62,367 nucleotides of DNA, taken from assembly GCA_023406225.1 (NCBI GenBank), contig JAEXWS010000033.1, positions 1 through 62,367 of the forward strand, in the 5' to 3' direction. The notes under the pieces are model-generated. The model made no database searches and was not told where the DNA came from. It saw only the letters and a program-made list of their open reading frames with translations. The stretch is from Bacillota bacterium (GTDB lineage Bacteria > Bacillota > Clostridia > Oscillospirales > Oscillospiraceae). The position numbers were made by a program, and so were the translations under genes. This document shows, one piece after another, positions 1-18,225 of the stretch (position 1 is its first letter; the number at the start of each line of letters is the position of its first letter).

Positions 1-1195
1 GCTCCAGGCGGAACATTACGCCGGCGCGATGCAGGCCAAGCGGGAGGGAAAGATGGTGGCCTGGGCCACGTCCATCTGCCCCCAGGAGCTGCTGGAGACG
101 CTGGATATCGACGTGGTCTATCCGGAAAACCACGCGGCGGCCATCGGCGCCCGGAAGGACGCGCCCCAGTTCATCGCCAACGCCGAGGCCAAGGGCTATT
201 CCACGGATATCTGCTCTTACGCCCGGGTGAACATGGGCTATGCGGACATCCAGTATTCCGAGGCGGAGAACATCCCTCTGCCGGACCTGATCTTCTGCTG
301 CAGCAACATCTGCAACACGGCCATCAAATGGTATGAGAACCTGGCCAAGACCCTGCATGTGCCCCTGGTGATGTTCGATATGCCCTTCAACCACACGTTC
401 GACATCCCGGAGCACAGCATCAAATACATGCGGGGCCAGATCGAGTACGCCATCGGCCAGCTGGTGGAGATCACCGGCAAAAAGTTCGACTACGACAAGT
501 TCGGAGAGGTCATGAAGGTCTCCTCCGAGAGCGCGCTGTGGTGGCGGCGGGCCACGGACCTGGGGCGGAACCATCCCTCCCCCCTCAACGGCTTCGACAT
601 GTTCAACTACATGGCCATGATCGTCTGCGCCCGGGGCAAGGAGTCCACCAGGGACCTCTTCAAGCTGTGGCACGACGAGATGGCGGAGAAGGTCCGCCTG
701 GGCAAGGGACCCTGGCGGGAGGGCGAGGAGAAGTACCGCATCATGTGGGACGGCATCGCCTGCTGGCCCCATCTGTCCGTCACCTACAAGACTTTGAAAA
801 AGTACGGCATCAACATGGTCACCAGCACCTATCCGGAGTCCTGGACCATCGTGTACGAGAAAAACGATCTGGACGGCATGGCCCGGGCCTACAGCGCAAA
901 CTACGCCAACCGGAACCTGGACTACGGCACCGGCAACGTCATCAAGCTGGTCCGGGACTTCGATCTGGACGGCATCGTTTACCACTCCAACCGGAGCTGC
1001 AAGCTGATGGACTTCCGCCAGTACGAGGTCCAGCGGCGCATCGAGGAGGCCACCGGCGTTCCCTCCGTGGTGTTCGACGGCGACCAGACCGACCCCCGCA
1101 TCTTCTCCCAGGCCCAGTATGAGACCCGCATCCAGGCATTGCTTGAGATGATGGAGGAGAACAAGATCAAAAAGCAGAGAGGTGACCTGAAATGA
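1..1195 (+). CDS. 2-hydroxyacyl-CoA dehydratase subunit (HadB/FldB/HgdA-like), 5'-truncated by the window edge
   Basis: Frame is open from position 2 (LQAEHYAGAM...). Motifs YPENHAAAIGA, DICSYARVN, NICNT..KWYE, HSNRSCK and DGDQTDPR..AQYETR are typical of the family. Confidence 0.9.
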   Translation, partial: LQAEHYAGAMQAKREGKMVAWATSICPQELLETLDIDVVYPENHAAAIGARKDAPQFIANAEAKGYSTDICSYARVNMGYADIQYSEAENIPLPDLIFCCSNICNTAIKWYENLAKTLHVPLVMFDMPFNHTFDIPEHSIKYMRGQIEYAIGQLVEITGKKFDYDKFGEVMKVSSESALWWRRATDLGRNHPSPLNGFDMFNYMAMIVCARGKESTRDLFKLWHDEMAEKVRLGKGPWREGEEKYRIMWDGIACWPHLSVTYKTLKKYGINMVTSTYPESWTIVYEKNDLDGMARAYSANYANRNLDYGTGNVIKLVRDFDLDGIVYHSNRSCKLMDFRQYEVQRRIEEATGVPSVVFDGDQTDPRIFSQAQYETRIQALLEMMEENKIKKQRGDLK

Positions 1196-2319
1196 ACGAC
1201 GCCCGGACGATCATCGACGCCCTCTGCCGCCAGGCGCTGCATCCCGCCCAAACCATCGGGGAGAGCTGCAGATCCTCCGGCAGGGAGGCGGTGGGGTGCT
1301 TCCCCATCTATACGCCCGAGGAGCTGGTTTACGCGGCGGGCTTCCTGCCCGTGGGCATGTGGGGCGGAAACACGGAGATCAAGCTGGCGGACCGCTACCT
1401 CCAGGGCTTTTGCTGCTCCATCATGCGCTCCAACATCGAGTACGGCATGCGGGGGACGTATAACCGGCTGAAGGCCGTTTTGCTGCCCACCCTGTGCGAT
1501 ACCTTGAAATGCATCTGCGAAAACTGGAAGGTGGCGGTGCCCCAGGTGCCCGTTATCCCGGTGGTGTATCCTCAGAACCGGAACCTTCCGGCAGGGGAGC
1601 AGTACTTAAAAGACGAGTTCCAGCGCGTGCGGGGGGAGCTTGCCCGCCTGGCGGGCCGCAGAGTCACCGACGAGGACCTGGAAGCGGCCTTCGCCCTGTA
1701 TGAGGACTGGCGGGCGGCCATGCGGGACTTCTGCGAGGCCGCGGCGGACCATCCCAAAACGGTGGACGCCAAGGCGCGGCATCTGGTCATCAAGGCGGGC
1801 TGGTTCCTGGACAAGGCCGCCTATACCGCCCGCATCCGGGAGCTGACGGCGGCGCTGCGGGCCATGCCCGCCGAGGAATGCGCGGTCCGTGTGGTGGCCA
1901 CCGGACTGATGGCGGAGCCGGTGGGCATCCTGGACCTTTTGACGGAGAACGGCATCGCCGTGGTGGCGGACGATCTGGCCCAGGAAAGCCGCCAGTTCCG
2001 CACGCCCGCCCGGCCCGGAGGGGACGCCCTCTCCCGGATGGCGTGGCGCGTCATGGACCAGCGGGGCTGCCCCTTCCTCTATGAGGAGGGCAAGAGCCGG
2101 GGCCGGATGCTCATCGATCTGGCGGAGACATACAGGGCCGACGCGGTGGTGACCATGCTGATGAAGTTCTGTGATCCGGACGAGTTCGACTATCCCATCT
2201 ACAAGGCGGAGCTGGAAGCGGCGGGGATCCCCCAGCTCTATCTGGAGGTGGAGCAGCAGATGGACAGCTTCGGCCAGGTGGGCACCCGCATCCAGAGCTT
2301 TGCGGAAATGTTGACGTAA
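1192..2319 (+). CDS. 2-hydroxyacyl-CoA dehydratase second subunit (HadC/FldC/HgdB-like)
   Basis: Motifs GCFPIYTPEEL, CCSIMRS, CDTLKC and MKFCDPDEFDYP. ATGA overlap with the upstream gene. Confidence 0.9.
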   Translation: MNDARTIIDALCRQALHPAQTIGESCRSSGREAVGCFPIYTPEELVYAAGFLPVGMWGGNTEIKLADRYLQGFCCSIMRSNIEYGMRGTYNRLKAVLLPTLCDTLKCICENWKVAVPQVPVIPVVYPQNRNLPAGEQYLKDEFQRVRGELARLAGRRVTDEDLEAAFALYEDWRAAMRDFCEAAADHPKTVDAKARHLVIKAGWFLDKAAYTARIRELTAALRAMPAEECAVRVVATGLMAEPVGILDLLTENGIAVVADDLAQESRQFRTPARPGGDALSRMAWRVMDQRGCPFLYEEGKSRGRMLIDLAETYRADAVVTMLMKFCDPDEFDYPIYKAELEAAGIPQLYLEVEQQMDSFGQVGTRIQSFAEMLT

Positions 2320-2328
2320 GGAGGGCCC

Positions 2329-3108
2329 ATGTATTTAGGAATCGACATCGGCTCCTCCTCCTCCAAGGCGGCGCTGCTCAATGAGGAAAAGGTGATCGTG
2401 GGGACCCGGGTGGTGAACCTGGGCACCGGCACCAAGGGCATCCAGACGGCGCTGAGCGAGCTGTATGACCAGGCGGGCATCGCCCCCGGACAGGTCCGTT
2501 ACACGGTGGTCACCGGTTACGGGCGGCTGCTGTACGGCGAGGCCGACAAACAGATTACGGAGATCACCTGCCACGCCAAGGGCATCCACTTTCTGATGCC
2601 CCAGGTGCGGACGGTGGTGGATATCGGCGGCCAGGATTCCAAGGTCATCCGCATGGACGGCGGCGGCAACGTGCAGAACTTCGTCATGAACGAGAAATGC
2701 GCCGCGGGAACGGGCCGGTTCCTGGAGGTCATGGCCCGGGTGCTGGGCTGCTCCATCGGGGAGCTCAGCGATCTGGCGGCCCGGGCCACCCGGGATGTGG
2801 CCATCTCCAGTGTGTGCACCGTGTTCGCGGAGAGTGAGGTCATCTCCCAGCTCTCCCAGGGCCAGCATCCCGACGACGTGGCCCGGGGCGCCCTGCGGGC
2901 GGTGGCCAAGCGGGTGGCGGGACTGTGCGGCCGGGTGGGGGTGGAGGACGCCGTCGCCATGAGCGGCGGCGTGGCCCTCAACCGGACGATGGTGGAGGTC
3001 CTGGGCCAGGAGCTGGACCGGACCGTGATTCCCGCGCCGGACTCCCAGGCGGTGGGCGCCATCGGCGCGGCCATCCTGGCCCGGGAGCAGTACCACAAGA
3101 GCCGCTGA
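2329..3108 (+). CDS. ATP-dependent dehydratase activator (HadI/FldI/HgdC family)
   Basis: Motifs GIDIGSSSSK, TGYGR, DIGGQDSK, MNEKCAAGTGRFLE and CTVFAESEVIS. AGGAGG RBS. Confidence 0.93.
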   Translation: MYLGIDIGSSSSKAALLNEEKVIVGTRVVNLGTGTKGIQTALSELYDQAGIAPGQVRYTVVTGYGRLLYGEADKQITEITCHAKGIHFLMPQVRTVVDIGGQDSKVIRMDGGGNVQNFVMNEKCAAGTGRFLEVMARVLGCSIGELSDLAARATRDVAISSVCTVFAESEVISQLSQGQHPDDVARGALRAVAKRVAGLCGRVGVEDAVAMSGGVALNRTMVEVLGQELDRTVIPAPDSQAVGAIGAAILAREQYHKSR

Positions 3109-3163
3109 AAACAGACCGGGCGGCGGCCCGGACCCCATTAATCAAAGAGAGGAACATGTCATC

Positions 3164-4471
3164 ATGGATTGGAAAGAATATTACAAGCAGCATCTGGTAT
3201 CCGCGGAGGAGGCGGTTTCCCACATCAAGTCCGGAGACTGGGTGGTGCCGTCCCACGCCGCGTCCGAGCCGGAATACCTGTTTGATGCGCTGCTCAAGCG
3301 CAGCGGCGAGCTGCGGGACGTGCGCATCTGGCAGGGGCTGAACATCGGGGCCGCCAAGTACGCCCGCCCCGAGTACACGGAGAGCTTCAAGGTCAGCTCC
3401 GTATTCCTGGGCGGCCAGAACCGGGAATGCATCCAAAACGGCCGGGGCGAGTTCACCCCCATGGCCTTTTCCCTTCAGCCCCGGGCGATGCGCACCGGCG
3501 CGGTGCCCTGCGACGTGTACCTGGGCCAGGTGACGCCTCCCGACGACGAGGGCTATTGCAGCTTCGGCCTGTCCGTGGACTTCGCCCGCTCCTGCGTGGA
3601 GGCCGCCAAGCTGAAGATCGTCCAGGTGAACCGCAACATGCCCCGCACCTGCGGCGACACCAAGGTCCATGTGACGGAGCTGGACTACTTCGTGGAGGCG
3701 GACACCCCCCTCTATGAACTGCCCCTCATCGACAGCAGCGACCCCATTGTGGACCGGATCGGCGCCAACATCGCCTCGCTGATCGACGACGGCGCCACCC
3801 TCCAGATGGGCCAGGGCAAGATCCCCAACGCCATCCTCAAGTGCCTGTTCGACAAGAAGGATCTGGGCATCCACACGGAGGTCTTTTCCGACAACCTTCT
3901 GCCCCTGATCGAGGCGGGCGTGATCAACGGAGCCCGCAAGAGCATCAACCAGGGCAAGATCGTCTCCACCTTCATCCAGGGCACCCGGGCGCTGTACGAT
4001 TTTGCGGACGGCAACGACATGGTGCAGCTCCATCCCGTGGACTATACGAACCACGTGGGCGTCATCGCCCAGAACGACAACATGGTGGCCATCAACTCCG
4101 CCATCGAGGTGGACCTGACCGGCCAGGTGGCGGCGGACGCCATGGGCATGACGCAGTTCTCCGGCATCGGCGGCCAGCTGGACTTTATCCGGGGCGCGGC
4201 GCTGAGCCGCGGCGGCAAGCCCGTCATCGCCCTGCCCGCCACGGCGAAAAAAGGGAGCATTTCCCGCATCGTGGCCCGGATGCAGGCCGGCACCCCCATT
4301 GCAACGCCCCGGAACGACGTCTTTTATGTGGTCACCGAGTACGGCGTGGCGGAGCTGTTCGGCAAGTGCCTGCGGGACCGGGCCAAGGCGCTGATCTCCA
4401 TCGCGGCCCCCCAGTTCCGGGAGGACCTGGAACGGGACTTCTTCGAGCTTTACAAAAAGTCCGGCATCTGA
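3164..4471 (+). CDS. Acetyl-CoA hydrolase/CoA-transferase (4-hydroxybutyrate CoA-transferase-like, family I)
   Basis: Motifs DGATLQMGQGKIPNA, LGIHTE (catalytic Glu), SGIGGQLDF and VVTEYGVA. Confidence 0.88.
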   Translation: MDWKEYYKQHLVSAEEAVSHIKSGDWVVPSHAASEPEYLFDALLKRSGELRDVRIWQGLNIGAAKYARPEYTESFKVSSVFLGGQNRECIQNGRGEFTPMAFSLQPRAMRTGAVPCDVYLGQVTPPDDEGYCSFGLSVDFARSCVEAAKLKIVQVNRNMPRTCGDTKVHVTELDYFVEADTPLYELPLIDSSDPIVDRIGANIASLIDDGATLQMGQGKIPNAILKCLFDKKDLGIHTEVFSDNLLPLIEAGVINGARKSINQGKIVSTFIQGTRALYDFADGNDMVQLHPVDYTNHVGVIAQNDNMVAINSAIEVDLTGQVAADAMGMTQFSGIGGQLDFIRGAALSRGGKPVIALPATAKKGSISRIVARMQAGTPIATPRNDVFYVVTEYGVAELFGKCLRDRAKALISIAAPQFREDLERDFFELYKKSGI

Positions 4472-4521
4472 GCACGCGCTCTGAAAGTATAAGCCATATC
4501 AATTTTTAGGAGGAACACGAC

Positions 4522-5598
4522 ATGAAAAAGACCCGCACTCTTGTATCCCTGGTCCTGGCCCTGGTAATGGTCCTGACCCTGGCCGCCTGCGGCGGCGGCG
4601 ACGCCAAGACGCCCGCGAACGACGGTTCCGGCGGCTCCGGCGGCGCGGCGGACGACACCGTTTACACCATCACCGCCGGCGGCACCGTCCCCGACGAGCA
4701 CCCCATTTCCCAGGGCATGTTCGAGTTTGAACGGGTGGCCGAGGAGCTGTCCGGCGGCCGCATCCAGGTGGAGACTTACGTGAACAACACCCTGGGCGGA
4801 AGCCGGGAGCTGGTGGAGGCCGTGCAGGCGGGCGAGCTCCAGATGTGCGAGACCAGCCAGTCCATGTACGCGAGCTTCACCGAGGAGCTGATGAGCGTGG
4901 GCCTGCCCTTCCTGTTCAAAAACCGCGAGGCCGCCTATGCCTTCTATGACAGCGAGGTGGGCGACCAGATCTCCCAGGCCATCTGCGACCAGACCGGCAT
5001 CCGCATCGTGGGCTATTTTGAAAACGGCATCCGCCAGCTCACCAACTCCAAGCGTCCCATCCTCACCCCCGACGACATGAAGGGCCTGAAGATCCGCGTC
5101 ATGGAGTCCCCCTTGTATATCGAGATGTTCACCGAGATGGGCGCCAACCCCATGCCCATGTCCTTCAGCGAACTGTATACCGCGCTGCAGCAAAAGACCG
5201 TGGACGGCCAGGACAATCCCTACGCCATCACCGCCACCAACGCCTTCTATGAGGTCCAGAAATACATGACCGACCTGAGCCACACCTTTGACATCACCTG
5301 CTACTCCATCAACGACGCGTTCTACCAGAGCCTGCCCGACGACTTGAAGGACGTGGTGGACCAGGCTGCGGCCGCCGCCGTGAAGGTGAACCGCGAGCAG
5401 TCTGTGGAGAAGGAAGCCGAGTATATCAAGACCATCCAGGACGGCGGCTGCGAGATCACCTTCCTGACCGACGAGCAGCGCCAGGTCTTCAAGGACGCCA
5501 CCGCCGGGTGCTATGATTTCTTCACCAAGAACTACAATCCCACCGTTACCCTGGAGACCGTCATGGCCAAGGCCGAGGAAGTGAACGCGGCCAACTGA
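4522..5598 (+). CDS. dctP: TRAP transporter solute-binding lipoprotein (DctP family)
   Basis: Lipobox LAAC; motifs ENGIRQLTN, DMKGLKIRVM and ELYTALQQKTVDGQDN. Confidence 0.9.
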   Translation: MKKTRTLVSLVLALVMVLTLAACGGGDAKTPANDGSGGSGGAADDTVYTITAGGTVPDEHPISQGMFEFERVAEELSGGRIQVETYVNNTLGGSRELVEAVQAGELQMCETSQSMYASFTEELMSVGLPFLFKNREAAYAFYDSEVGDQISQAICDQTGIRIVGYFENGIRQLTNSKRPILTPDDMKGLKIRVMESPLYIEMFTEMGANPMPMSFSELYTALQQKTVDGQDNPYAITATNAFYEVQKYMTDLSHTFDITCYSINDAFYQSLPDDLKDVVDQAAAAAVKVNREQSVEKEAEYIKTIQDGGCEITFLTDEQRQVFKDATAGCYDFFTKNYNPTVTLETVMAKAEEVNAAN

Positions 5599-5611: not shown

Positions 5612-5641
5612 TTGCGGAGCGGCGGCGGCGCCGCTCCGCAA
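5612..5641 (+). terminator. Intercistronic stem-loop after dctP (probable mRNA stabiliser or attenuator)
   Basis: TTGCGGAGCGGCG-GCGG-CGCCGCTCCGCAA, a perfect 13-bp stem with no U-tract. Confidence 0.55.
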
Positions 5642-5665: not shown

Positions 5666-6148
5666 ATGAAAATATTGACCTTTATCGACCGTCATCTGGA
5701 GGAGATGCTCTGCGCCGTGCTGCTGTCGGCCATGACCATCGTGATCTTTATGCAGATCGTCTTCCGCGTTTTCGGCCTGCCTCTGTCTTGGACGGAGGAG
5801 ATCGGCCGCTACATGTTCATCTGGCTCATCTACATCGGCTGCGCCTCCGCCATCCGCAAGCGCAAGCACATCTGCGTGGAGCTGCTGGACCTGGTTTTGA
5901 AGGACCGGGGCCGGTTTGTGCTGAGCATCATTTCCAATGTGATCTTCCTGATTTTTGCGGGCATTTTGACCTATTACGGCTTCTTTGTGGTCCAGAGAGT
6001 CTCCGCGCAGCTCTCTCCCGCCATTCGGATGCCCATGTCCATCCCCTATGCATCCGTCCTGGTGGGCAGCGCGCTGATGTTCATCCGCCTGATCCAGGAC
6101 ACGATCGCCCGGTTTAAAGAGAGAAAGGAGGAACTGAAGGCATTATGA
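5666..6148 (+). CDS. dctQ: TRAP small permease (DctQ)
   Basis: Motifs WTEEIGRYMFIW and HICVELL, four hydrophobic segments. Start moved to the ATG after a purine-rich RBS. Confidence 0.88.
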   Translation: MKILTFIDRHLEEMLCAVLLSAMTIVIFMQIVFRVFGLPLSWTEEIGRYMFIWLIYIGCASAIRKRKHICVELLDLVLKDRGRFVLSIISNVIFLIFAGILTYYGFFVVQRVSAQLSPAIRMPMSIPYASVLVGSALMFIRLIQDTIARFKERKEELKAL

Positions 6149-7434
6149 CGAATCTGATTTTATTCGGCTCCTTCTTTATCCTGCTGCTGTTGAAGGTGCC
6201 CATCGGCGTTTCCGTGGGCATGTCCATCGTACTGTATCTGACCACCTGCAGCACCCAGCCCCTGACCTATCTTGCCACCAACATGTTTACCGCGGTGGAT
6301 TCCTTCCCCCTGATGGCCATCCCCTTCTTTATCCTGGCGGGCGGATTGATGGAGGGCGGCGGATTGAGCAAGCGCCTGGCGGATCTGGGCGGCGCGGCGG
6401 TGGGCCACATCACGGGCGGCTTCGCCATCGTGACGGTGCTCACCTGCATGTTCTTCGGCGCCATCTCCGGCTCCGGTCCGGCCACCGTGGCCGCCATCGG
6501 CGCGGTGATGGTCCCCGCCATGATCGAGCACGGCTATGACAAGGCCTTCTCCGTGGCGCTGATCGCGGCCTCCGGCTGCCTGGGCGTCATCGTGCCGCCC
6601 AGCATCCCCATGGTGCTGTACGGCGTGTCCACCGGCGCGTCTGTGGGCACCATGTTCATGGGCGGCTTCGGTCCCGCCATCGTCCTGGGCGGCGCGCTGT
6701 GCGTGCTGAGCATCGTGGTCTCCAGAAAGCGGGGCTACAAGGGCAACGGACAGAAGTTCTCCCTGGCCAATCTCTGGAAGCAGTTCAAAAACTCCATCTG
6801 GGCCCTGCTGGTGCCGGTCATCATCCTGGGCGGCATCTACGGCGGCTATTTCACCCCCACCGAGGCGGCGGTCATCGCCTGCGTGTACGGCCTGGTGGCC
6901 GGCGCGGTCATCTACCGGGAGCTGAGCTGGAAGAAGCTGTACGATTCCCTGATCGGCTCCGCAGAGACGGTGGGCACCGTGCTCATCATGGTGGGCACCG
7001 GCACCGTGCTGGGCAAGATTTTGGCGCTGGAGCGCATCCCCGACGCCATCATGAACGGCATGACCTCCCTCACCGACAACAAGTTCGTCATTTTGCTGCT
7101 GATCAACCTGCTGCTTTTGGTGGTGGGCTGCATCATGGACACCACCCCCGCCATTTTGATCCTCTCGCCCATCCTGTATCCCGTGGCCCAGGCCTTCGGC
7201 ATCGGCATCTTCCACTTCGGCCTCATCATGATCACCAATATGGCCATCGCCTTCATCACCCCGCCCGTGGGCGTGAACCTGTTCGTGGCCTCCGGCATGA
7301 CCAAGATGAAATTCACCGACCTTTGCAAGGCCATCGTGCCGTTTATTCTGGTGATGTTCGGCGCGCTGATCCTGATCACGTATATCCCCGCCATCACCGA
7401 GGCGCTCCCAAGGCTCTTGGGCATGATCGAGTGA
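6145..7434 (+). CDS. dctM: TRAP large permease (DctM)
   Basis: Motifs AIPFFILAG, FGAISGSGPAT, IVPPSIPM, FTPTEAA and ITPPVGVNLFV. Confidence 0.92.
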   Translation: MTNLILFGSFFILLLLKVPIGVSVGMSIVLYLTTCSTQPLTYLATNMFTAVDSFPLMAIPFFILAGGLMEGGGLSKRLADLGGAAVGHITGGFAIVTVLTCMFFGAISGSGPATVAAIGAVMVPAMIEHGYDKAFSVALIAASGCLGVIVPPSIPMVLYGVSTGASVGTMFMGGFGPAIVLGGALCVLSIVVSRKRGYKGNGQKFSLANLWKQFKNSIWALLVPVIILGGIYGGYFTPTEAAVIACVYGLVAGAVIYRELSWKKLYDSLIGSAETVGTVLIMVGTGTVLGKILALERIPDAIMNGMTSLTDNKFVILLLINLLLLVVGCIMDTTPAILILSPILYPVAQAFGIGIFHFGLIMITNMAIAFITPPVGVNLFVASGMTKMKFTDLCKAIVPFILVMFGALILITYIPAITEALPRLLGMIE

Positions 7435-11441: not shown

Positions 11442-11446
11442 GCGCC

Positions 11447-12448
11447 GTGGCGGGAGGACTGACCGCTTATTTCGACGTGGGCACCACGAACCTGCGGCTG
11501 TATCTTCTGGATGAGCGCCTGGAGACGCTGGCGGTCCTGCGCCGCGCGCTGGGGGCCCGGGACGCGGCCATCGCCGGGTCCCGCCGGCCTCTTCTGGAGG
11601 GGATGGGAGAGGCGTACCGCCAGGTTTTGAAAGACGCCGGGGCGGCGGATGGAGACGTGAAGGCCGTCTATGCCTCGGGCATGGTCACCTCGCCTTACGG
11701 CCTGCGGGAGATCCCCCACTTTCCCGCCCCGGCCACGGCGGAGGAATTCGCCCGCGGGGGCGTCACGCCCTGCTTTGAACCCGAGGTGTTCGGGCGGGAG
11801 CTTTGGCTGGTGGCGGGGCTGAAGACCGTGGGCGCGGACATCTCCTCCACCAACAACACCCGGGGAGAGGAGATCGAGACGCTGGGGGTCCTGCCGGAGC
11901 TGGAGCGGCGCTTTCCGGGACGGCAGGCCGCCGTCATCCTGCCCGGGTCCCACACCCATGTCCTGCTGGCGGGGCAGGGGCGGCTGGAGGGCATCCTCTC
12001 CACCTTCACCGGCGAGCTGTTCCAGGCCATCCGGGAGGAGACGGTGCTGGCTCCGGTGCTGGAAACGCCGTCGGACCACCCGGACCCGGACGCGGTGGCC
12101 CTGGGAATGGAGAATCTTGAACGGTACGGCTTCAACCGGGCGCTTTACATCGGCCATGCCATGCGCGTTTTTGAGGAGGGCACGCCCCACAGCCGCCGCT
12201 GTTACTGCGAGGCGGTGATCTCCGGCGGCGTGATCCAGGCCCTGGACGCCTGCTGCCGGGAGCGGTGGAGCGCCTGCGACGTCGCATTGGTGGTGGCGGG
12301 ACCTTATATGGCGGAGCTGTTCGGACTGCTGCTGCGGCGCAGCGAACGCATCCGCCGTTGGGAGAGCCTGACGCCCTCCGGCGAGGACGGCTTTGCCCTG
12401 GAGGGCCTGCGCCGGATCATAAGGATCAGAGAAAGGAACGATTTATGA
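11447..12448 (+). CDS. dgoK: 2-keto-3-deoxy-galactonokinase family kinase
   Basis: Motifs DVGTTNLRLY, SGMVTSPYGL, RGEEIE, LPGSHT and TGELF. GTG start (11438 is also possible). Confidence 0.8.
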   Translation: MAGGLTAYFDVGTTNLRLYLLDERLETLAVLRRALGARDAAIAGSRRPLLEGMGEAYRQVLKDAGAADGDVKAVYASGMVTSPYGLREIPHFPAPATAEEFARGGVTPCFEPEVFGRELWLVAGLKTVGADISSTNNTRGEEIETLGVLPELERRFPGRQAAVILPGSHTHVLLAGQGRLEGILSTFTGELFQAIREETVLAPVLETPSDHPDPDAVALGMENLERYGFNRALYIGHAMRVFEEGTPHSRRCYCEAVISGGVIQALDACCRERWSACDVALVVAGPYMAELFGLLLRRSERIRRWESLTPSGEDGFALEGLRRIIRIRERNDL

Positions 12449-13398
12449 GCAAACGGGTTTTGGTGACCTCACGATCTTTTGGGTCCATCGACTCCACGCC
12501 CCTGGATATTTTGAATGACGCCGGATGCAGCGTGACGCTGATGGGCAGGGACTTTGCGATGGACCGCTTTGAGGCGGCGGTGGTGGACTGCGACGTTCTC
12601 ATTATCGGCGCCCACGAATTTTCCCCCGCGCTGATGGCCCGGTGCAAAAAGCTGCGGCTGATCTGCAAGCACGGCGCGGGGCTGGACAACATCCACCTGG
12701 ACGAGGCGGCGGCCCAGGGCGTGGCGGTGTGCAACGCGCCGGGCACCAACGCGAACGCGGTGGCGGACCTGACGCTGGGCCTGATGCTCTGCTGCGCCCG
12801 GCACATCGCCTTGGCGGACCGCCGGGTGCGGGCGGGGGCGTGGAAGTCCCACACCGGGCGGGATGTGTGCGGCAAGACCCTGGGCCTTCTGGGGTTTGGC
12901 AGCGTGGCCCGGAACGTGGCCCGCCGGGCCGCAGGCTTCGACATGCAGGTGCTGGCCTACGATCCCTTCCTCAAGGAACTGCCCGCGGGCTTTCCCCACG
13001 TCCGCCTCTGCGCCGACGTGATGGAGGTGATCTCCGGATGCGACTTCCTCTCCGCCCATCTCCCCCTGACGGAGGAGACCCGGAACATTGTGGGAGAGAA
13101 GGAGATGGCCGCCATGCGGCCCGGGTCCTATCTCATCAACACCGCCCGGGGCGGCGTGGTGGATGAGGCGGCGCTGTACCGGGCGCTGGTATCCGGCCAT
13201 TTGGCCGGGGCGGCCATGGACGTTGCCGCCGAGGAGCCCATGCCGCCGGACCATCCCCTGCTGACGCTGGACAACGTGGTGGTGACGCCCCACATCGGCA
13301 TGTACTCCAAGGAGGCCATCAACGCGGTCAGCATCATCTGCGCGGAAAACGCCGCCGCCTGCCTGACGGGCGGGGCGCTCAAATTCCAGGTGGTCTGA
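12445..13398 (+). CDS. Second D-2-hydroxyacid (phosphoglycerate-like) dehydrogenase
   Basis: Motifs KHGAGLDNI, NANAVAD, GLLGFGSVA, INTARGGVVDE and TPHIG. Confidence 0.85.
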   Translation: MSKRVLVTSRSFGSIDSTPLDILNDAGCSVTLMGRDFAMDRFEAAVVDCDVLIIGAHEFSPALMARCKKLRLICKHGAGLDNIHLDEAAAQGVAVCNAPGTNANAVADLTLGLMLCCARHIALADRRVRAGAWKSHTGRDVCGKTLGLLGFGSVARNVARRAAGFDMQVLAYDPFLKELPAGFPHVRLCADVMEVISGCDFLSAHLPLTEETRNIVGEKEMAAMRPGSYLINTARGGVVDEAALYRALVSGHLAGAAMDVAAEEPMPPDHPLLTLDNVVVTPHIGMYSKEAINAVSIICAENAAACLTGGALKFQVV

Positions 13399-13404
13399 GA
13401 GAGT

Positions 13405-13435
13405 GGGGCTGAACGGAAGTTCGGCCCCGTTTCTT
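13405..13435 (+). terminator. Rho-independent terminator ending the catabolic operon
   Basis: GGGGCTGAAC-GGAA-GTTCGGCCCC followed by GTTTCTT. Confidence 0.6.
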
Positions 13436-13503
13436 GAAGAAGATGACAAAATGTGATATCATATACCTCGATCCCGAAACCTGCCTCTGGAAAGGAGCCC
13501 GCC

Positions 13504-15255
13504 ATGTGGTCGCTGGATAAGCCCTGTGAATTTCCCTCCTCCGCCCTTCGCGCCGTGATTCGGAACACGCCCAACGGCATCCTGTTTTTTGACGACGATT
13601 TTCAGGTGGTTTTTGCAAATCCGGCGGCGGCCCGGCTGCTGGGTCTGCCCTATCCGCTGGAGGAGAGCCTGGACGTGCGGACGCTGACGGGCCCGCTGGA
13701 CCTGCAGCGCCTGGAGGAGGGGGCGACCCTGATCATGCGCCGGGGGAACGATCTGTTCCATTACAGGCTCTTGTCCATGCAGGAGGGCGGGAGGTCCACG
13801 GGACACGCCCTGATTCTGATGGAGTCCGAAGAGGTGCTGCACTCCAAGTCGGAGCTGGAGGCGGCCTGGAAGCTGACGAGCGAGATGGAGGAGATCCTGG
13901 AAGGCTCCTTCGACGGCATCCTGGTCACGGACGGGGAGGGCAACGTCCAGTTCGTCAACAGCTCTTATGAACGGGTGGCCGCCATCCCGAAAAAAGAGCT
14001 GGCGGGCCGGAACATGAGAGCTCTTATCAACCCGGTGTGGATGGAGAACTCCGTGGCCTTCGTGGTCATGGACGAGCGGAGGCCCGTCTCCAAGCGCCAG
14101 GTGACGAAGGACGGCCGGGATATCATCGTCACCGGCAAGCCCGTCTTTGACGACGCGGGCAACATCAAGCGCATCGTCATCAACGCCCGGGACATTACGG
14201 AGATTTTTCAGCTCCGGGAGGAGCTGCTCAACGCCAAGAACCGGGAGCTGCAGCACTACCAAAGCGTCCTCAGCACCACCGATGTTGAGACGGAAAAGGT
14301 GGTGGCTGTCAGCGAGAACATCAAGAAGGTGTTCACCCTGGCAAAGCGGGTGGGGCCCTTTGACGCCACGGTGCTGATCCTGGGCGAGTCCGGCGCGGGC
14401 AAGGAAGAGGTGGCCCGCCAGATCCACAACAGCAGCATGCGCCGGGACCGCGCCCTGGTGACCATCAACTGCGGCGCCATCCCGGAAAATCTGCTGGAAA
14501 GCGAGCTGTTCGGCTATGAGAGGGGGGCGTTCACCGGAGCCTCCAACGCCGGGAAGATCGGCCTGCTGGAGGCCGCGGACGGCGGCACGGTCTTTTTGGA
14601 CGAGATCGGGGAGATCCCCCTCTCCTTCCAGGTGAAGCTGCTGCGGGTGCTGGAGACGAAACAGGTGACCAGGGTGGGCGGCGTCCGGGCCAAGAGCATC
14701 GATGTGCGCTTCGTGGCGGCCACCAACCGGGACTTGAGCAAAATGGTGCGGGAGGGGACCTTCCGGGAGGACCTCTATTACCGGCTCAACGTCGTCTCCA
14801 TCACCGTGCCGCCCCTGCGCCAGCGGCGGGAGGACATCCTGCCCCTGAGCCTCTATTTCCTCAATATGTTCAACCGCAAGTACAACCAAAACAAGGTCAT
14901 GACGCCGGAGGTCATCAAGCGGATGGAGGAGTACGACTGGGAGGGCAACGTCCGGGAGCTGCGCAACGTCATGGAGCATATGGTCATCATGAGCCACAGC
15001 GTCCAGCTCCAGATCAGCGACGTGCCCTGGATCATCTGCCAATGCGCCGGAAAGGAGCCGGACCCGCTGGCTCCCCCGCCTGCGGCGGAGGCGGAGACGG
15101 AGACGACCGATTTGAACCAGGCGGTGCAGGCGCTGGAGCAGCGGCTGCTGCTTCAGGCCAGGGATGCCTGCGGCTCCACCCGGGAGATGGCCCGCTATTT
15201 GAACGTGGACCAGTCCACCGTGGTCCGCAAGCTGCGCAAATACGGGATGAGCTGA
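13504..15255 (+). CDS. Sigma-54-dependent activator (PAS-PAS-AAA+-TyrR-type HTH)
   Basis: Walker A GESGAGKE, intact GAFTGA, FLDEIGE, FREDLYYRLNV, and C-terminal STREMARYLNVDQSTVVRKL. Confidence 0.93.
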   Translation: MWSLDKPCEFPSSALRAVIRNTPNGILFFDDDFQVVFANPAAARLLGLPYPLEESLDVRTLTGPLDLQRLEEGATLIMRRGNDLFHYRLLSMQEGGRSTGHALILMESEEVLHSKSELEAAWKLTSEMEEILEGSFDGILVTDGEGNVQFVNSSYERVAAIPKKELAGRNMRALINPVWMENSVAFVVMDERRPVSKRQVTKDGRDIIVTGKPVFDDAGNIKRIVINARDITEIFQLREELLNAKNRELQHYQSVLSTTDVETEKVVAVSENIKKVFTLAKRVGPFDATVLILGESGAGKEEVARQIHNSSMRRDRALVTINCGAIPENLLESELFGYERGAFTGASNAGKIGLLEAADGGTVFLDEIGEIPLSFQVKLLRVLETKQVTRVGGVRAKSIDVRFVAATNRDLSKMVREGTFREDLYYRLNVVSITVPPLRQRREDILPLSLYFLNMFNRKYNQNKVMTPEVIKRMEEYDWEGNVRELRNVMEHMVIMSHSVQLQISDVPWIICQCAGKEPDPLAPPPAAEAETETTDLNQAVQALEQRLLLQARDACGSTREMARYLNVDQSTVVRKLRKYGMS

Positions 15256-15342
15256 GAGATCAAACGAGCGCCGGCCAAAAGGCCGGCGCTCGTTTCCGTG
15301 GAAGGACCGCCGCGGGGCCGGGAGGGCGGCTCCGGGCGCGGT

Positions 15343-16203
15343 TTACTGCTTTTCGTACCGGTAGAAGCCCTCGCCGGACTTCCGTCCCAGCATCCCCGCG
15401 TCCACAAAGCGCTGCAGGACCGGGCTGGGGCGGAAGCGGTCGCCGTAGGCGTCGAAGAGAATCTGGTCCACGCTGACGTTCAGATCGTGGCCAAGCTGGT
15501 CCAGCAGCTTGCAGATGCCCACGGGGTGGCCCAGGCCGTACACACAGATCTTGTCGATATCCTCGGGCGTGGCCACACCCTCTTCCACCAGGCGCATGGC
15601 CTCGCCGTAAAAGACGTGGAACAGCCGGTTCAGGGCGAAGCCGGTGACGTCCTTCACCCGCACGGGCTCCTTCCCGATGGAGAGCAGCAGCTCCGTGACG
15701 GCGTCGGCCGTCTCGTCGGAGGTCAGGAGGCCCGGGATGACCTCCACCAGCTTCATGACGCTGGCGGGGGAGTTGAAGTGCATGCCCGCGAAGCGGGCGG
15801 CCCGCTCCCGGCTGACCGCGGCGGCCAGCTTGGTGATGGAGATGCTGGAGGTGTTGGAGGCCAGGATGGTCTCGGACTTGCAGATGCCGTCCAGCTTGCG
15901 GAAGGTGTCGGACTTGATCTCCAGGTTTTCCAGGACCGCCTCGATGATGAGGTCGCAATCCGCCATCAGCGTCAGGTCCGCCGTGGGAGTCACCCGGGCC
16001 AGGACGTCCTGCTTTTGCTCCTCGGTGAGTTTGCCCTTGGCCACCTGCTTGGAGAGGACCGCGTCCTGCTTCTTTTTTCCGCCGTCGGCAAACTCCTGCT
16101 TGATATCCGCCAGCACCACGTCCATGCCGCTGCGGGCAAAGCACAGGGCGATCTCCGCGCCCATCATTCCCGCGCCGACGACACCGATCTTTTGAAAGTT
16201 CAT
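15343..16203 (-). CDS. hbd: 3-hydroxyacyl(butyryl)-CoA dehydrogenase
   Basis: Motifs GVVGAGMMG, IIEAVLE, LASNTSSISI, GMHF, GFALNR and GRKSGEGFY. Confidence 0.9.
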   Translation of the reverse strand: MNFQKIGVVGAGMMGAEIALCFARSGMDVVLADIKQEFADGGKKKQDAVLSKQVAKGKLTEEQKQDVLARVTPTADLTLMADCDLIIEAVLENLEIKSDTFRKLDGICKSETILASNTSSISITKLAAAVSRERAARFAGMHFNSPASVMKLVEVIPGLLTSDETADAVTELLLSIGKEPVRVKDVTGFALNRLFHVFYGEAMRLVEEGVATPEDIDKICVYGLGHPVGICKLLDQLGHDLNVSVDQILFDAYGDRFRPSPVLQRFVDAGMLGRKSGEGFYRYEKQ

Positions 16204-16225
16204 TTCATTCGCTCCTATTCGTTTC

Positions 16226-17434
16226 TTATTCGCAGTTTTCCACGATGACGGCCATGCCCTGGCCGCCGCCGATGCAAAGGCTCTCCAGTCCGTACCGGGC
16301 CCCCCGGCGCTTCATCTCATAGATCAGGGTGGTCAGCAGCCGGGTGCCGCTGTTGGCCAGGGCGTGGCCGTGGGCGATGGCGCCGCCGTTGACGTTGACG
16401 CGCTTATAAAGCTCCGTGCCCATGTCCATGCCCAGCTCCTTCAAGCAGCCCAGGGATTGGGCCGCAAAGGCCTCGTTCAGCTCGATCAGGTCCATGTCCT
16501 CCAGTTGCAGGCCGGTCTTTTTCAAGACCTTCCGGATGGCGGGCACGGGACCCAGGCCCATATACCGGGGGTCCACGCCGGCGCTGGAGGTGGCCAGGAT
16601 GCGCACCAGGGGTTTCAGGCCCAGTTCCCGGGCCTTGTCCTCGCTCATGACCACCACGGCGGAGGAGCCGTCGTTCATGCCGGAGGAGTTGCCCGCGGTA
16701 ACGATGCCGTCGGGCTTGAAGGCGGGCTTCAGCTTGGCCAGGGATTCCATGGTGGTGTCGGGCTTGGGATGCTCGTCGGTGTCGAAAACGAAGCTGCTCC
16801 GGCGGTCCTTCACCTCAAAGGGGAAGATCTCGTCCTTGAATTTTCCGGCGTCCTGGGCGGCCTTGGTCTTGCGCTGGCTGTCCACGGAGAAGGCGTCCAG
16901 CTCCTCCCGGGTCATGTGGTAGCGGGCGGCCACGTTTTCCGCGGTGATGCCCATGTTGGTGCCGGGATACTTGGCCTGGGGCTGGACGATGGTCACGCCG
17001 TGGGAGAAGGTGTCGTACAGGGGCTTGTCGCCCATGCGCAGGGGCTGGTAGCGGGCGGTGGGGGGCAGGTAATAGGTCATGCGGGACATGACCTCCACGC
17101 CGCCCGCCACGATGATGTCCGCCTCGTCGGCGGCGATCTCGTAGCAGGCGCTCTGCACCGCTTGAAGAGAGGACGCGCACTGGCGGTCCACGGTGTAGGC
17201 CGGGGTCTCCTCGGGCACGCCCGCCATCAGCGAGGCGCAGCGGGCCACGTTGGGCGTGTAGCCGTACACGTCTCCGAAAATGACCTGGTCGATCTGGCTC
17301 AGGTCCACGCCGCCCCGCTTGGCGGCCTCCTGGATGGCGGCGGCGCCCAGGTCCTGGGCCTCCACGGTCTTGAGGCTTCCTAAGTACCCGCCCACGGCGG
17401 ACCGGGCCGCGCCGGTGATGACAATGTTTTTCAT
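16226..17434 (-). CDS. Acetyl-CoA C-acyltransferase (thiolase)
   Basis: Motifs QCASSL, TAGNSSGMNDG, ELNEAFAAQ, NGGAIAHGH and CIGGGQG. ATG after AGGAGG. Confidence 0.92.
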   Translation of the reverse strand: MKNIVITGAARSAVGGYLGSLKTVEAQDLGAAAIQEAAKRGGVDLSQIDQVIFGDVYGYTPNVARCASLMAGVPEETPAYTVDRQCASSLQAVQSACYEIAADEADIIVAGGVEVMSRMTYYLPPTARYQPLRMGDKPLYDTFSHGVTIVQPQAKYPGTNMGITAENVAARYHMTREELDAFSVDSQRKTKAAQDAGKFKDEIFPFEVKDRRSSFVFDTDEHPKPDTTMESLAKLKPAFKPDGIVTAGNSSGMNDGSSAVVVMSEDKARELGLKPLVRILATSSAGVDPRYMGLGPVPAIRKVLKKTGLQLEDMDLIELNEAFAAQSLGCLKELGMDMGTELYKRVNVNGGAIAHGHALANSGTRLLTTLIYEMKRRGARYGLESLCIGGGQGMAVIVENCE

Positions 17435-17454
17435 AATTCCTCCTGTTGTCCGGC

Positions 17455-18225
17455 TCAGCGTCCGGTGAATACGGGCTTCCGCTTCTCCAAAAACGCGGCC
17501 ATGCCCTCCTTTTGATCCTGGTGGTTGAACAGCTCCGCCCAAAGAGCGGCCTCGTGGGCGCAGGCGTCGGTGAAGTCCGGGTGGCCCACGCCGTATTCGA
17601 TGGCGTTCTTGGCCGCCGCCAGGGCCAGGCTGCTGCGGGTGCAGAGCTTGGCGGCCCACTTCCGGGCCGTGGGCAGCAGTTCCTCCCGCTCCACCGCCAG
17701 ATTCGCAAGGCCGATGCGCTCCGCCTCCGCGCCGTCCACCACCCGGCTGAGATAGATCAGCTCTTTGGCCTTGGCCTCGCCCACCAGCCGGGGCAGCAGC
17801 ACCGTGCCGCCCGCGCCGGGGATGATGCCCAGGTTCAGCTCCGTCAGTCCCAGCTTGGCGGTCTTTGCGGCGATGCGGAAATCGCACCGGAGGGCCAGCT
17901 CCAGCCCGCCGCCGAAGGCGTAGCCGTCCACCACGGCGATGGTGGGGATGGGCAGGGACTGGATCTTGTTATAGGTGGGGGTGAACAAAAAGGCACGTGC
18001 CCCCGCCTCGTCGCAGGGGGCCATGTCCTTGATGTCCGCGCCGGCGGCGAAGTTCTCCTCGCTGTAAAACAGCAGGACCCGGATGCCCTCGTCCGCCCGT
18101 ACCTCCTCCACCAGCGCGTCCATCTCGTCCACGATGGCGCGGGATAGGGCGTTCAGCGCCTCGGGCCGCAGAACTTTGATGGTGGCCGTCTGGCCGTCCC
18201 GTTCCAGAATGATTTGTCTGCTCAT
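17455..18225 (-). CDS. crt: Enoyl-CoA hydratase (crotonase family)
   Basis: Motifs RPEALNAL, FAAGADI, GYAFGGGLELA, ELNLGIIPGAGGT and EGMAAFLEKR. Confidence 0.88.
   Translation of the reverse strand: MSRQIILERDGQTATIKVLRPEALNALSRAIVDEMDALVEEVRADEGIRVLLFYSEENFAAGADIKDMAPCDEAGARAFLFTPTYNKIQSLPIPTIAVVDGYAFGGGLELALRCDFRIAAKTAKLGLTELNLGIIPGAGGTVLLPRLVGEAKAKELIYLSRVVDGAEAERIGLANLAVEREELLPTARKWAAKLCTRSSLALAAAKNAIEYGVGHPDFTDACAHEAALWAELFNHQDQKEGMAAFLEKRKPVFTGR

Follow-up and report, generated by a model that had tools for sequence, protein, structure and literature searches.

The 62,367-nucleotide stretch analyzed here, hereafter the window, is the whole of contig JAEXWS010000033.1 (C184 in our numbering) of the Bacillota bacterium assembly GCA_023406225.1, a genome assigned to the Oscillospiraceae (2.65 Mb in 242 contigs, 88.8% complete, 1.8% contaminated). 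The GC content of the window is around 65%. Its first 18,225 positions carry genes of an oxygen-sensitive type of radical 2-hydroxyacyl-CoA dehydratase (Had) next to genes for the uptake and catabolism of sugar acids. Judging from these genes and from their neighborhoods in other genomes, the best explanation of the region is a single sigma-54-controlled catabolic island of an Oscillibacter-like gut Clostridium, made of separable modules that are repeatedly found together. An earlier note on this DNA had named 17 genes in the interval, and profile scans with Pfam and NCBIfam, with starts adjusted by ribosome-binding sites, recovered all of them in the order and orientation given (Table 1). The gene names are to be read at the family level, since several equivalog cut-offs were not reached. 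The plus-strand run was said to face crt-thl-hbd, which is accurate if facing is taken as convergent, the trio lying on the minus strand. The 13 genes from hadB to hadh2 are tightly packed, with intergenic gaps of -4 to +71 bp (eda and dgoK overlap by 4 bp), and 105 bp precede the activator gene.

Table 1. Predicted genes of the island and the nearby rpoN, in window coordinates, with the profile matches on which the family names rest
Gene or product	Position	Strand	Evidence and remarks
hadB-like alpha subunit, 2-hydroxyacyl-CoA dehydratase	2-1195	+	5' end cut by contig end; HGD-D (PF06050) 253.7 bits
hadC-like beta subunit	1192-2319	+	HGD-D 276.6 bits
ATP-dependent activase (act), HadI/HgdC type	2329-3108	+	BcrAD_BadFG 222 bits; TIGR00241 270.9 bits, cut-off 125.4
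CoA transferase (coaT), 4-hydroxybutyrate / butyryl-CoA:acetate type	3164-4471	+	AcetylCoA_hydro and AcetylCoA_hyd_C
dctP, TRAP solute-binding lipoprotein	4522-5598	+	DctP 285.3 bits; TIGR00787 238.4 bits, cut-off 175
dctQ, TRAP small membrane subunit	5666-6148	+	DctQ 111.9 bits; ATG and ribosome-binding site at 5666
dctM, TRAP large membrane subunit	6145-7434	+	DctM 397 bits
KduD-like short-chain dehydrogenase	7436-8191	+	adh_short_C2 185.1 bits
D-2-hydroxyacid dehydrogenase no. 1 (hadh1)	8263-9255	+	2-Hacid_dh_C 156 bits
UxaA/GarD-superfamily sugar-acid dehydratase	9268-10770	+	SAF, GD_AH_second and GD_AH_C domains
Eda-type KDPG/KHG aldolase	10794-11441	+	Pfam Aldolase 126.7 bits; TIGR01182 165.7 bits, cut-off 156.05
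DgoK-family 2-keto-3-deoxy-acid kinase	11438-12448	+	Pfam DGOK 102.1 bits, cut-off 25
D-2-hydroxyacid dehydrogenase no. 2 (hadh2), PGDH-like	12445-13398	+	2-Hacid_dh_C 202.2 bits
Sigma-54 enhancer-binding activator	13504-15255	+	Sigma54_activat 231.5 bits, two PAS, AAA_lid_14 (AAA+), HTH_50
hbd, 3-hydroxyacyl-CoA dehydrogenase	15343-16203	-	3HCDH_N 212 bits and 3HCDH
thl, thiolase	16226-17434	-	Thiolase_N and Thiolase_C
crt, enoyl-CoA hydratase	17455-18225	-	ECH_1 202.9 bits; ATG at 18225 with ribosome-binding site
rpoN (sigma-54)	22516-24018	-	Sigma54_AID, Sigma54_CBD, Sigma54_DBD; ~4 kb from the island

The first three genes are predicted to encode a complete Had-type (R)-2-hydroxyacyl-CoA dehydratase, with two iron-sulfur subunits and an ATP-dependent activase, and the proteins carry the testable features of this family. 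The best solved relative of HadB is the HadB of Clostridioides difficile (PDB 3O3M_A, E 1.1e-133). Three cysteines of HadB (Cys71, Cys104, Cys333) are invariant in 73 sequences and three of HadC (Cys75, Cys102, Cys327) in 67, in both cases down to 49% identity, and we take them to be ligands of the [4Fe-4S] clusters. Likewise, Cys124 and Cys163 of the activase are invariant in 68 sequences and presumably correspond to Cys127 and Cys166 of HgdC. HadB and HadC score below the cut-offs of their equivalogs (534.9 bits against 750 for NF052455, and 438.6 bits against 700 for NF052456), and the predicted dehydratase should therefore not be filed as an isocaproate, i.e., (R)-2-hydroxyisocaproyl-CoA, enzyme. 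This is the one Had system of the genome. The CoA transferase that follows belongs, from its matches, to the 4-hydroxybutyrate CoA-transferase family: PDB entries 3EH7 (E 3.3e-129) and 3GK7 (E 6.2e-120) both carry that name, and the score against the butyryl-CoA:acetate equivalog TIGR03948 is 330.5 bits, under its cut-off of 674.8.

All three components P, Q and M of a tripartite ATP-independent periplasmic (TRAP) importer come next (PF03480, PF04290 and PF06808). The N-terminus of DctP ends in LAAC, a lipobox-like motif. The best PDB relatives of this protein are 4P47, 7BBR, 4P9K and 4PDH, and the sorting of such entries into erythronate and pantoate binders is our assumption. In this group, 2-keto-3-deoxygluconate (KDG) is the ligand of 7BBR and pantoate or erythronate that of others, and 4P47 has no bound ligand (PMC11668362). 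At the 35-40% identity that we estimate from bit scores, the predicted ligand class is no finer than a small polyhydroxy carboxylate. The best-scoring model of the KduD-like short-chain dehydrogenase (SDR) is TIGR01832 (291.5 bits, under the cut-off of 338.85), and the protein matches PDB 4HP8, named 2-deoxy-D-gluconate 3-dehydrogenase, at E 6.6e-64. Hadh1 has its best PDB matches among glyoxylate reductases and phosphoglycerate dehydrogenase (PGDH; E 6.6e-40), hadh2 matches the PGDH 1WWK (E 3.8e-58), and both group with glyoxylate/hydroxypyruvate/2-ketogluconate reductases and PGDH, which are enzymes of polar 2-oxo acids. A third homologue of these dehydrogenases, an open reading frame of 444 amino acids, lies outside the island (29063-30397, plus strand).

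The UxaA-type protein shows the three domains and the four conserved cysteines of the UxaA/GarD superfamily (Cys133, 167, 200 and 265, conserved in 18/18 sequences). It matches GarD (PDB 6U7L) at E 1.1e-80 and the galactarate-dehydratase equivalog TIGR03248 with 319.3 bits, well under the cut-off of 730.85. Four conserved cysteines have been described for the superfamily, whose known functions are those of altronate, galactarate, idonate and arabinonate dehydratases and sulfolactate sulfo-lyase (PMC6336799). UxaC (PF02614) and UxaB/UxuB-type genes (PF01232) have no match in the 88.8% of the genome represented in the assembly, and the UxaA-type gene is therefore not part of a standard hexuronate (Ashwell) pathway. 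The genome holds a paralogue with 37% identity on contig C94 (1339-2769), whose in-frame TGA could mean that the gene is a pseudogene or the codon recoded, or could stem from an error in sequencing. The aldolase, of the type that cleaves 2-keto-3-deoxy-6-phosphogluconate (KDPG) or 2-keto-4-hydroxyglutarate (KHG), is the sole PF01081 match of the genome. It adjoins the predicted DgoK-family kinase, as in a kinase-plus-aldolase cassette; no NCBIfam model matches DgoK at E 1e-10.

The window opens inside hadB, and the sequence before it was found on another contig of the assembly, C54, whose reverse complement ends in the 19 bases that open the window (bases 1-19). C54 supplies the missing N-terminus of HadB (the first ~14 codons) and, ~115 bp ahead of its ATG, the -24/-12 element TGGCAC-N5-TTGCG. 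A promoter of this kind was what the earlier note had proposed to look for upstream, and it occurs with at most 2 mismatches at the same position in 9/9 close relatives. On the opposite strand of C54, a second sigma-54 element, TGGCACAGCATTTGCT, precedes a gene for a Zn-dependent polyol-type dehydrogenase (Zn-ADH), followed by one for a FabZ-like hotdog dehydratase (476-1953), the pair being divergent from hadB. The best models of the Zn-ADH are scyllo-inosose, threonine and idonate dehydrogenases, all under cut-off. Beyond this pair C54 has unrelated genes, and the acyl-CoA dehydrogenase and electron-transfer flavoprotein (ETF) genes that had also been expected upstream are absent from it.

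Within the window, the exact motif TGGCAC-N5-TTGCW has 0 matches, and with 2 mismatches it is rarer than in shuffled sequences and missing from the intergenic gaps of the first 18 kb. Terminators and sigma-70 promoters scored by a further scan are no more frequent than in shuffles, and the gaps of the first 18 kb hold no plus-strand terminator. Given a promoter before hadB and neither an internal -24/-12 site nor a plus-strand terminator, the 13 genes from hadB to hadh2 look like one sigma-54 operon. The features of a sigma-54 regulon are found together: the putative promoter, the gene for an enhancer-binding activator (nearest NCBIfam model PrdR, 423.1 bits, under the cut-off of 795) and rpoN, the sigma factor required by such promoters, which presumably serves the nearby island. 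Two GC-rich, perfect hairpins were also seen, at 3116-3131 between act and coaT and at 5612-5641 between dctP and dctQ. Their T-runs are on the minus strand only, so they are not plus-strand terminators, and they may be RNA-processing or stability elements. The excerpts of a survey of Clostridiales sigma-54 regulons (PMC6615313) list butyrate operons and a kdgT-uxaA unit, and no Had operon.

To place the island among its relatives, we searched species-representative genomes with HadB. Of the 192 stretches that matched, 152 code for relatives, the 80 best of which were retained (loci are cited below by L numbers, other contigs of the window's assembly by C numbers). Records titled Oscillibacter or Oscillospiraceae hold the closest HadB relatives (94-96% amino-acid identity). 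In a sample of the family, a HadB match at or below E 1e-100 occurs in 20/151 genomes, of which only 4 reach 52% identity, and a genome of the same genus that is 98% complete has none. From these matches, the distribution of the Had trait is patchy.

Neighbors were counted around the 80 loci by tblastn, requiring at least half of the query to be covered. Apart from hadC (76/80) and the activase (75/80), the most constant partners are hbd (61), the CoA transferase of 4-hydroxybutyrate type (59, of which 43 at 50% identity or more), thl (53) and crt (48), and at least two genes of the trio are present in 56 loci. Less frequent are the sigma-54 activator (33), a FabZ-like gene (32), acd and etfA (21 and 22), the TRAP type of the window (15-16), the KduD-like SDR (15), AbfD-like genes (11, where they follow the transferase), and the UxaA orthologue at 50% identity or more and hadh1 (10 each). 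Eda, DgoK and a DHDPS-type (dihydrodipicolinate synthase) aldolase are found in 4 loci each. Where hadB is flanked by 5 kb or more on its upstream side and 8 kb or more on its downstream side (38 loci), the trio occurs in 29, UxaA in 9 and some sugar-acid-type gene in 15. The reading of the earlier note, which a lack of co-conservation would have refuted, largely withstands this comparison and is partly supported. Co-conservation with Had is uneven: strong for the trio and the CoA transferase, which share its operon in most of the 80 loci, moderate for the KduD-like SDR, TRAP and UxaA, and weak for Eda and DgoK.

The convergent trio of the window deserves particular attention. In most loci outside Oscillibacter it lies directly before hadB in the same operon, and the trio of the window is therefore no chance neighbor. 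An operon of the type activator-hadBC-act-hbd-crt-thl-transferase occurs in ~20 loci. The FabZ-like gene (32/80 loci) lies in other taxa between the activase and the CoA transferase, and loci of the L063-L068 type have a MaoC-like hydratase instead. The thiolase scores 464.2 bits on the general acetyl-CoA C-acyltransferase model TIGR01930, over the cut-off of 240.55, followed by PRK06205 (431.3), BktB (427.8), the acetoacetyl-CoA thiolase PRK05656 (407.6) and PcaF (399.8), all four under their cut-offs. The region upstream of crt-thl-hbd is AT-rich and has no -24/-12 match. Divergent from crt, at 18358-21570 on the plus strand, is a gene for a regulator of 1070 amino acids that combines MalT-like TPR repeats with a BTAD domain at the C-terminus and may control the trio.

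The window's genome has a second, Had-free cluster of related genes on contig C191 (~34.1-43.2 kb), with a sigma-54 activator, dctPQM (45-58% identity), a CoA transferase (47%), a thiolase, hbd (69%) and an iron-dependent alcohol dehydrogenase (Fe-ADH). From its genes, this cluster would seem to serve the use of an imported acid of the 3-hydroxy or 3-oxo type. For the island itself, we rejected the uptake of (R)-3-hydroxybutyrate as its entire function, as this leaves Had unexplained. A replacement of AbfD by Had was also rejected, because AbfD co-occurs with Had and the chemistry differs. On contig C121 of the same genome, an AbfD-like 4-hydroxybutyryl-CoA dehydratase (78% identity to the copy of L038) adjoins an acyl-CoA dehydrogenase.

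In two further explanations, Had would serve a classical fermentation. The first is the 2-hydroxyglutarate route of glutamate fermentation, where 2-hydroxyglutaryl-CoA would give glutaconyl-CoA and, by a sodium-pumping decarboxylase encoded elsewhere, crotonyl-CoA for crt, hbd and thl, while the sugar-acid genes may feed 2-oxoglutarate, e.g., from an aldarate. HadB is 49-50% identical to its counterparts in the act-hadB-hadC loci of Fusobacterium (L079, L080), which we take to be HgdCAB, and galactarate dehydratase is the best named relative of the UxaA-like protein. Contig C172 of the same genome has a 596-amino-acid carboxyltransferase adjoining the beta subunit of a sodium-translocating decarboxylase. 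However, this subunit passes the malonate-decarboxylase model (621.3 bits, cut-off 596.9), and neither a decarboxylase subunit nor a GctAB-type transferase is found among the recurrent neighbor families of the 80 loci. Crt, hbd and thl do follow the glutaconyl-CoA decarboxylase in the known pathway, as described in the excerpts of PMC5715108. Yet the dehydrogenases of the island are outside the D-lactate/HgdH clade and the Eda/DgoK cassette would have no role, so that we consider this route quite improbable. A gene for an Ldh_2-family dehydrogenase precedes the C172 pair.

The second is an electron sink of the acrylate type, in which pyruvate from Eda would be reduced to D-lactate and activated, HadBC would dehydrate the thioester to acryloyl-CoA, and a final reduction to propionate would balance sugar-acid oxidation. 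The ingredients are partly there: pyruvate is a product of Eda, the island encodes D-2-hydroxyacid dehydrogenases and a CoA transferase, acd-etfBA accompanies this Had clade in 21-22 of the 80 loci, and the enzyme family includes the lactyl-CoA dehydratase (PMC8473912, in excerpt). However, acd and etf are found neither in the island nor on the abutting C54, the constant partners crt, hbd and thl have no role after acryloyl-CoA, and Eda occurs in only 4 loci. In addition, the dehydrogenases are outside the D-lactate dehydrogenase clade, and sugar acids, being more oxidized than sugars, need no extra sink. The earlier note had offered a pure electron sink as one of three options; it is the least supported of them, and we regard it as highly improbable.

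The link between the sugar-acid genes and Had was approached from the other side by a search with UxaA. The orthologue group is 50-83% identical to the protein of the window (two paralogues of the same genome have 34-37%). In a class-wide sample, UxaA homologues are found in 96/301 genomes, none of them above 50% identity, so that the sample covers only homologues more distant than this group. The search gave 32 loci, 7 of which are on contigs shorter than 8 kb and are uninformative. HadB is within 10 kb of the UxaA gene in 13/32; chance alone would place a given single-copy gene in about 0.8% of the 21-kb stretches drawn from a 2.6-Mb genome. Another 4 have Had or partner genes on the same contig, just beyond the locus or cut at its end. 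The remaining 6 (with ~11 kb of sequence or more), setting aside two loci to which we return below, have no hadB, and two of these carry an activase-thiolase-transferase set or an hbd.

The arrangements of UxaA beside Had are diverse. It is downstream in the same operon in the window, L003, L006 and L008; divergent and directly before hadB in L011 and L013; divergent before acd-etf-thl-hbd-crt-hadB in L009 and L076; after abfD and with a second divergent TRAP in L018/L103, L034/L096 and L104; directly after the activase gene in L053; and part of a single run, hadh1-uxaA-...-crt-hbd-thl-hadBC-act-dctP, in two metagenome-assembled genomes (MAGs) of Syntrophomonadaceae (L107, L108). This adjacency spans at least 4 families, and, since the layouts differ so widely, the proximity of UxaA and Had has been kept through many rearrangements. 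The gene often travels with hadh1, the pair being found in L084-86, L089-91, L093, L107 and L108, and in L011 it sits between the trio and hadB. A -24/-12 site immediately precedes uxaA in 11 loci and hadB in 14, and in L018/L103 three such promoters go with one shared local activator gene.

Several neighbors of these UxaA genes are worth recording. A gene for an IlvD/EDD-family acid-sugar dehydratase is directly beside the UxaA orthologue near Had in L104 (8184-9929) and L108 (84-1763). In L096, L097, L101, L102, L103, L104 and L109, the orthologue is usually paired with a TRAP system of its own, whose binding protein is 29-35% identical to the DctP of the window, and in five of these loci the pair is divergent with a -24/-12 site on each side. 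LarA-like proteins (Lar_N domain), which could be 2-hydroxyacid racemases or epimerases, are encoded beside Had or UxaA clusters in L009, L010, L015 and L094, with a Zn-ADH adjoining.

In contrast with the recurrence of UxaA, Eda and DgoK behave as a variable, exchangeable cassette. Within Oscillibacter, the stretch from kduD to the activator gene may hold hadh1-uxaA, eda-dgoK-hadh2, both or neither, the two pieces varying independently of each other: L001 has eda-dgoK-hadh2 alone, L003/L084 hadh1-uxaA alone, L004 neither, and the window, L006 and L008 both. In L011-L013 a DHDPS-family aldolase takes the position of Eda. Aldolases of the Eda and DHDPS types are functionally equivalent, as known from the archaeal KD(P)G aldolases, and their interchange argues for an aldolase, for which reason we rejected a KdgD-type route to 2,5-dioxopentanoate. 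The genomes of two isolates, L034 (titled Emergencia timonensis) and L026 (titled Clostridium aminobutyricum), and one Syntrophomonadaceae MAG have a UxaA orthologue near Had and, genome-wide, neither an Eda-family aldolase nor DgoK. The usual fate of the UxaA product, by kinase and aldolase, is therefore unavailable there. These genomes make the strongest single argument for a 2-keto-3-deoxy acid passing to the Had arm, an argument short of proof, as a DHDPS-type aldolase with a PfkB kinase would be an alternative.

Taken together, these patterns lead us to a tentative scheme, which we think possible without calling it probable, in which a 2-keto-3-deoxy acid is a branch point, being either cleaved in Entner-Doudoroff (ED) style or reduced, CoA-activated, dehydrated by radical chemistry and shortened. 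A carboxylic sugar acid, probably of C4 to C6, or its keto form, would enter by the TRAP importer, and the KduD-like SDR, the Zn-ADH and one of the D-2-hydroxyacid dehydrogenases would trim it. The UxaA-type enzyme would then dehydrate it to the 2-keto-3-deoxy acid. In the first arm, restricted to islands bearing the cassette, DgoK would phosphorylate this acid and Eda cleave it to pyruvate and triose phosphate. In the second arm, the dehydrogenase adjoining UxaA (hadh1) would reduce it to an (R)-2-hydroxy-3-deoxy acid, the CoA transferase would form the thioester, and HadBC would strip the 2-hydroxyl by its ketyl-radical mechanism to leave a 2-enoyl-CoA. This would be rehydrated at C3 by Crt, oxidized by Hbd and cleaved by the thiolase to acetyl-CoA and a shortened acyl-CoA. 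The net outcome would be a shift of the hydroxyl from alpha to beta and the loss of a C2 unit. Among the options of the earlier note, the sequence of C2 dehydration, C3 rehydration, oxidation and thiolysis would best fit the Had-Crt-Hbd-Thl core, and the split of the substrate between two arms would fit the Eda/DgoK cassette as a second arm.

By analogy, the chain length could be placed at either end of this range. A C6 substrate would be suggested by Eda and DgoK, by the KduD-like enzyme and by 7BBR, the relative of DctP that binds KDG, and a C4 substrate by the 4-hydroxybutyrate-type transferase, the AbfD neighbors and the relatives of DctP that bind erythronate and pantoate. For C4 thioesters, an engineered route described in the excerpts of PMC13180773 lends feasibility to the Crt/Hbd/thiolase arm, since BktB and the Hbd and Crt of Clostridium handle 4-hydroxy-3-oxobutanoyl-CoA, 3,4-dihydroxybutyryl-CoA and 4-hydroxybut-2-enoyl-CoA.

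A further step from the branch-point scheme would be a CoA-dependent beta-oxidation of sugar acids, each round of which would yield acetyl-CoA and a sugar acid two carbons shorter. In a round, an aldonic acid would be dehydrated by the UxaA-type enzyme, reduced to the (R)-2-hydroxy-3-deoxy acid, CoA-activated and passed to Had for loss of the 2-hydroxyl, then rehydrated at C3, oxidized and thiolyzed. A hexonate would in this way give a tetronate, then 2,4-dihydroxybutyryl-CoA and 4-hydroxycrotonyl-CoA, which could end as acetyl-CoA and glycolyl-CoA or, via 4-hydroxybutyryl-CoA and AbfD, as crotonyl-CoA. We find this extension unlikely. If true, it would mean that Had-type enzymes act on polyhydroxylated acyl-CoAs and that sugar-acid fermentation is accessible to asaccharolytic anaerobes without ED aldolases.

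Several observations weigh against a chemical link between the two blocks. We know of no Had-type enzyme that acts on a polyhydroxylated acyl-CoA. In the excerpts of PMC8473912, the characterized enzymes of this type all act on substrates derived from amino acids or lactate. Two loci of the UxaA search, L088 and L094, have the sugar-acid block (TRAP, uxaA, SDR/Fe-ADH, eda, dgoK, hadh2 and activator) with no Had within 10 kb, and sugar-acid genes are altogether lacking from 23 of the 38 well-flanked Had loci. A close Oscillibacter relative, L004, has Had, coaT, TRAP, kduD and the activator gene without hadh1, uxaA, eda, dgoK and hadh2. Elsewhere, the same Had clade lies within a butyrate operon with acd-etfBA (21-22/80) or adjoins AbfD (11/80), contexts in other taxa that suggest plain crotonyl-CoA as the central intermediate. 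The D-2-hydroxyacid dehydrogenases may also act as 2-ketoaldonate reductases, in a step that comes before UxaA and not after it. Finally, the loci were collected by peptide-pattern scans and are mutually related, so the counts are not independent events.

Such observations would be expected if two independent pathways were simply adjacent, which we hold to be a serious possibility, on the doubtful side. Had, the CoA transferase and the trio would ferment a simple 2-hydroxy or 2-oxo acid, and TRAP, KduD, UxaA, Eda and DgoK would form an ordinary ED-type route for a hexonate or keto-hexonate, for which TRAP, UxaA, DgoK and Eda alone suffice. The simplest substrate of Had would then be (R)-2-hydroxybutyrate, from threonine or methionine or taken up in the gut, and the adjacency would reflect shared sigma-54 control or the assembly of the island. 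The lactyl-CoA dehydratase of C. propionicum and the Had pathway of C. difficile indeed take 2-hydroxybutyrate via its CoA ester to crotonyl-CoA and butyrate, according to the excerpts of PMC8473912 and PMC10541586. The butyrate operons (acd-etfBA-thl-hbd-crt) and AbfD contexts just mentioned agree with this, as do the homologues of LarA-like 2-hydroxyacid racemases beside the cluster in L009, L010, L015 and L094, and the separate modules of L088, L094, L004 and the loci without sugar-acid genes. However, a specific UxaA orthologue group stays by Had through six rearrangements in at least 4 families, the hadh1-uxaA pair of L011 is inserted between the trio and hadB, and some genomes have UxaA by Had and lack Eda and DgoK. 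The recurrent neighbor families include no threonine dehydratase or other source of 2-oxobutyrate, and the thiolase scores highest on the general acetyl-CoA C-acyltransferase model, with BktB ahead of PRK05656.

The island can be compared with several known systems. It shares with the reductive leucine pathway of C. difficile (LdhA, HadA, HadI, HadBC, AcdB-EtfBA) the two-subunit HGD-D dehydratase with its activase, and a D-2-hydroxyacid dehydrogenase and CoA transferase in the set. In contrast, its transferase is of the 4-hydroxybutyrate/acetyl-CoA-hydrolase family and not of the HadA type, assuming the family that we ascribe to HadA, and in place of acyl-CoA dehydrogenase/ETF it has crt-hbd-thl, TRAP, sugar-acid enzymes and sigma-54 control. 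The C. difficile pathway also turns 2-hydroxybutyrate into butyrate (PMC10541586, in excerpt). With the 2-hydroxyglutarate pathway (HgdCAB, GctAB, Gcd) it has in common the passage from a radical dehydratase over an enoyl-CoA to crotonase, 3-hydroxybutyryl-CoA dehydrogenase and thiolase, as laid out in the excerpts of PMC5715108. It differs in that glutaconyl-CoA decarboxylase and GctAB are absent from the island and its recurrent neighbors, the only candidate decarboxylase being on C172. The lactyl-CoA dehydratase system, which could feed straight into crt/hbd/thl, has Pct and acryloyl-CoA reductase/ETF as partner genes; these are absent here, and that system has no link to sugar acids.

The semi-phosphorylative Entner-Doudoroff/DeLey-Doudoroff and Ashwell routes (UxaA, KduD, DgoK/KdgK, Eda/DgoA) resemble the island in the dehydratase that gives a 2-keto-3-deoxy acid, the kinase and the class I aldolase, whereas the front end of the island consists of an SDR, a Zn-ADH and two D-2-hydroxyacid dehydrogenases, lacks UxaC and UxaB/UxuB, and is joined to a radical-dehydratase operon. 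The 4-aminobutyrate/4-hydroxybutyrate fermentation of Clostridium aminobutyricum (AbfT, AbfD) uses the same CoA transferase family, and AbfD is encoded elsewhere in the window's genome (C121), but it is outside the island, where Had is an addition and not a replacement. A precedent is offered by the oxidative deoxyribonate pathway of Pseudomonas simiae, in which a deoxy sugar acid is reportedly shortened via a 3-keto intermediate to acetyl-CoA and glyceryl-CoA (Price et al. 2019). That pathway is said to use a beta-keto-acid cleavage enzyme acting on the free acid, with no radical dehydratase and no crt/hbd/thl.

The earlier note knew of no characterized cluster with this pairing, and neither did we find one: among the papers listed by our full-text searches, none links a 2-hydroxyacyl-CoA dehydratase to UxaA, KduD, TRAP or further genes of sugar-acid use. 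All the enzyme families are already known and the Had logic is classical. What is new, as predicted from the genes, is the partner set, with a 4-hydroxybutyrate-type transferase and crt-hbd-thl replacing acd/ETF or a decarboxylase, together with the sigma-54 switch and the recurrent ties to TRAP and the SDR and to the UxaA-dehydrogenase pair. Further along the window, on the minus strand at 38741-40743, feoB is present as two overlapping open reading frames, a GTPase N-part (39904-40743) and a membrane part (38741-40003), which suggests a frameshift or an assembly error.

The island is carried by records titled Oscillibacter, Oscillospiraceae and Anaerovoracaceae, including cultured isolates such as that of L006/L085 (titled Oscillibacter sp. 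GMB15532). Oscillibacter is reported, in the excerpts of PMC5715108, as a core butyrate producer of the human gut, and the island may be a new route by which sugar acids or hydroxy acids derived from the diet or the host reach acetate and butyrate. Conjecturally, these acids could come from the breakdown of pectin, alginate or glycosaminoglycans, from ascorbate products or from 2-hydroxy acids. If the link between the two blocks is chemical and not merely positional, the substrate range of Had-type enzymes would widen beyond thioesters derived from amino acids and lactate, and these islands would hold natural enzymes for the deoxygenation of sugar acids, a step now built synthetically (cf. the excerpts of PMC13180773).

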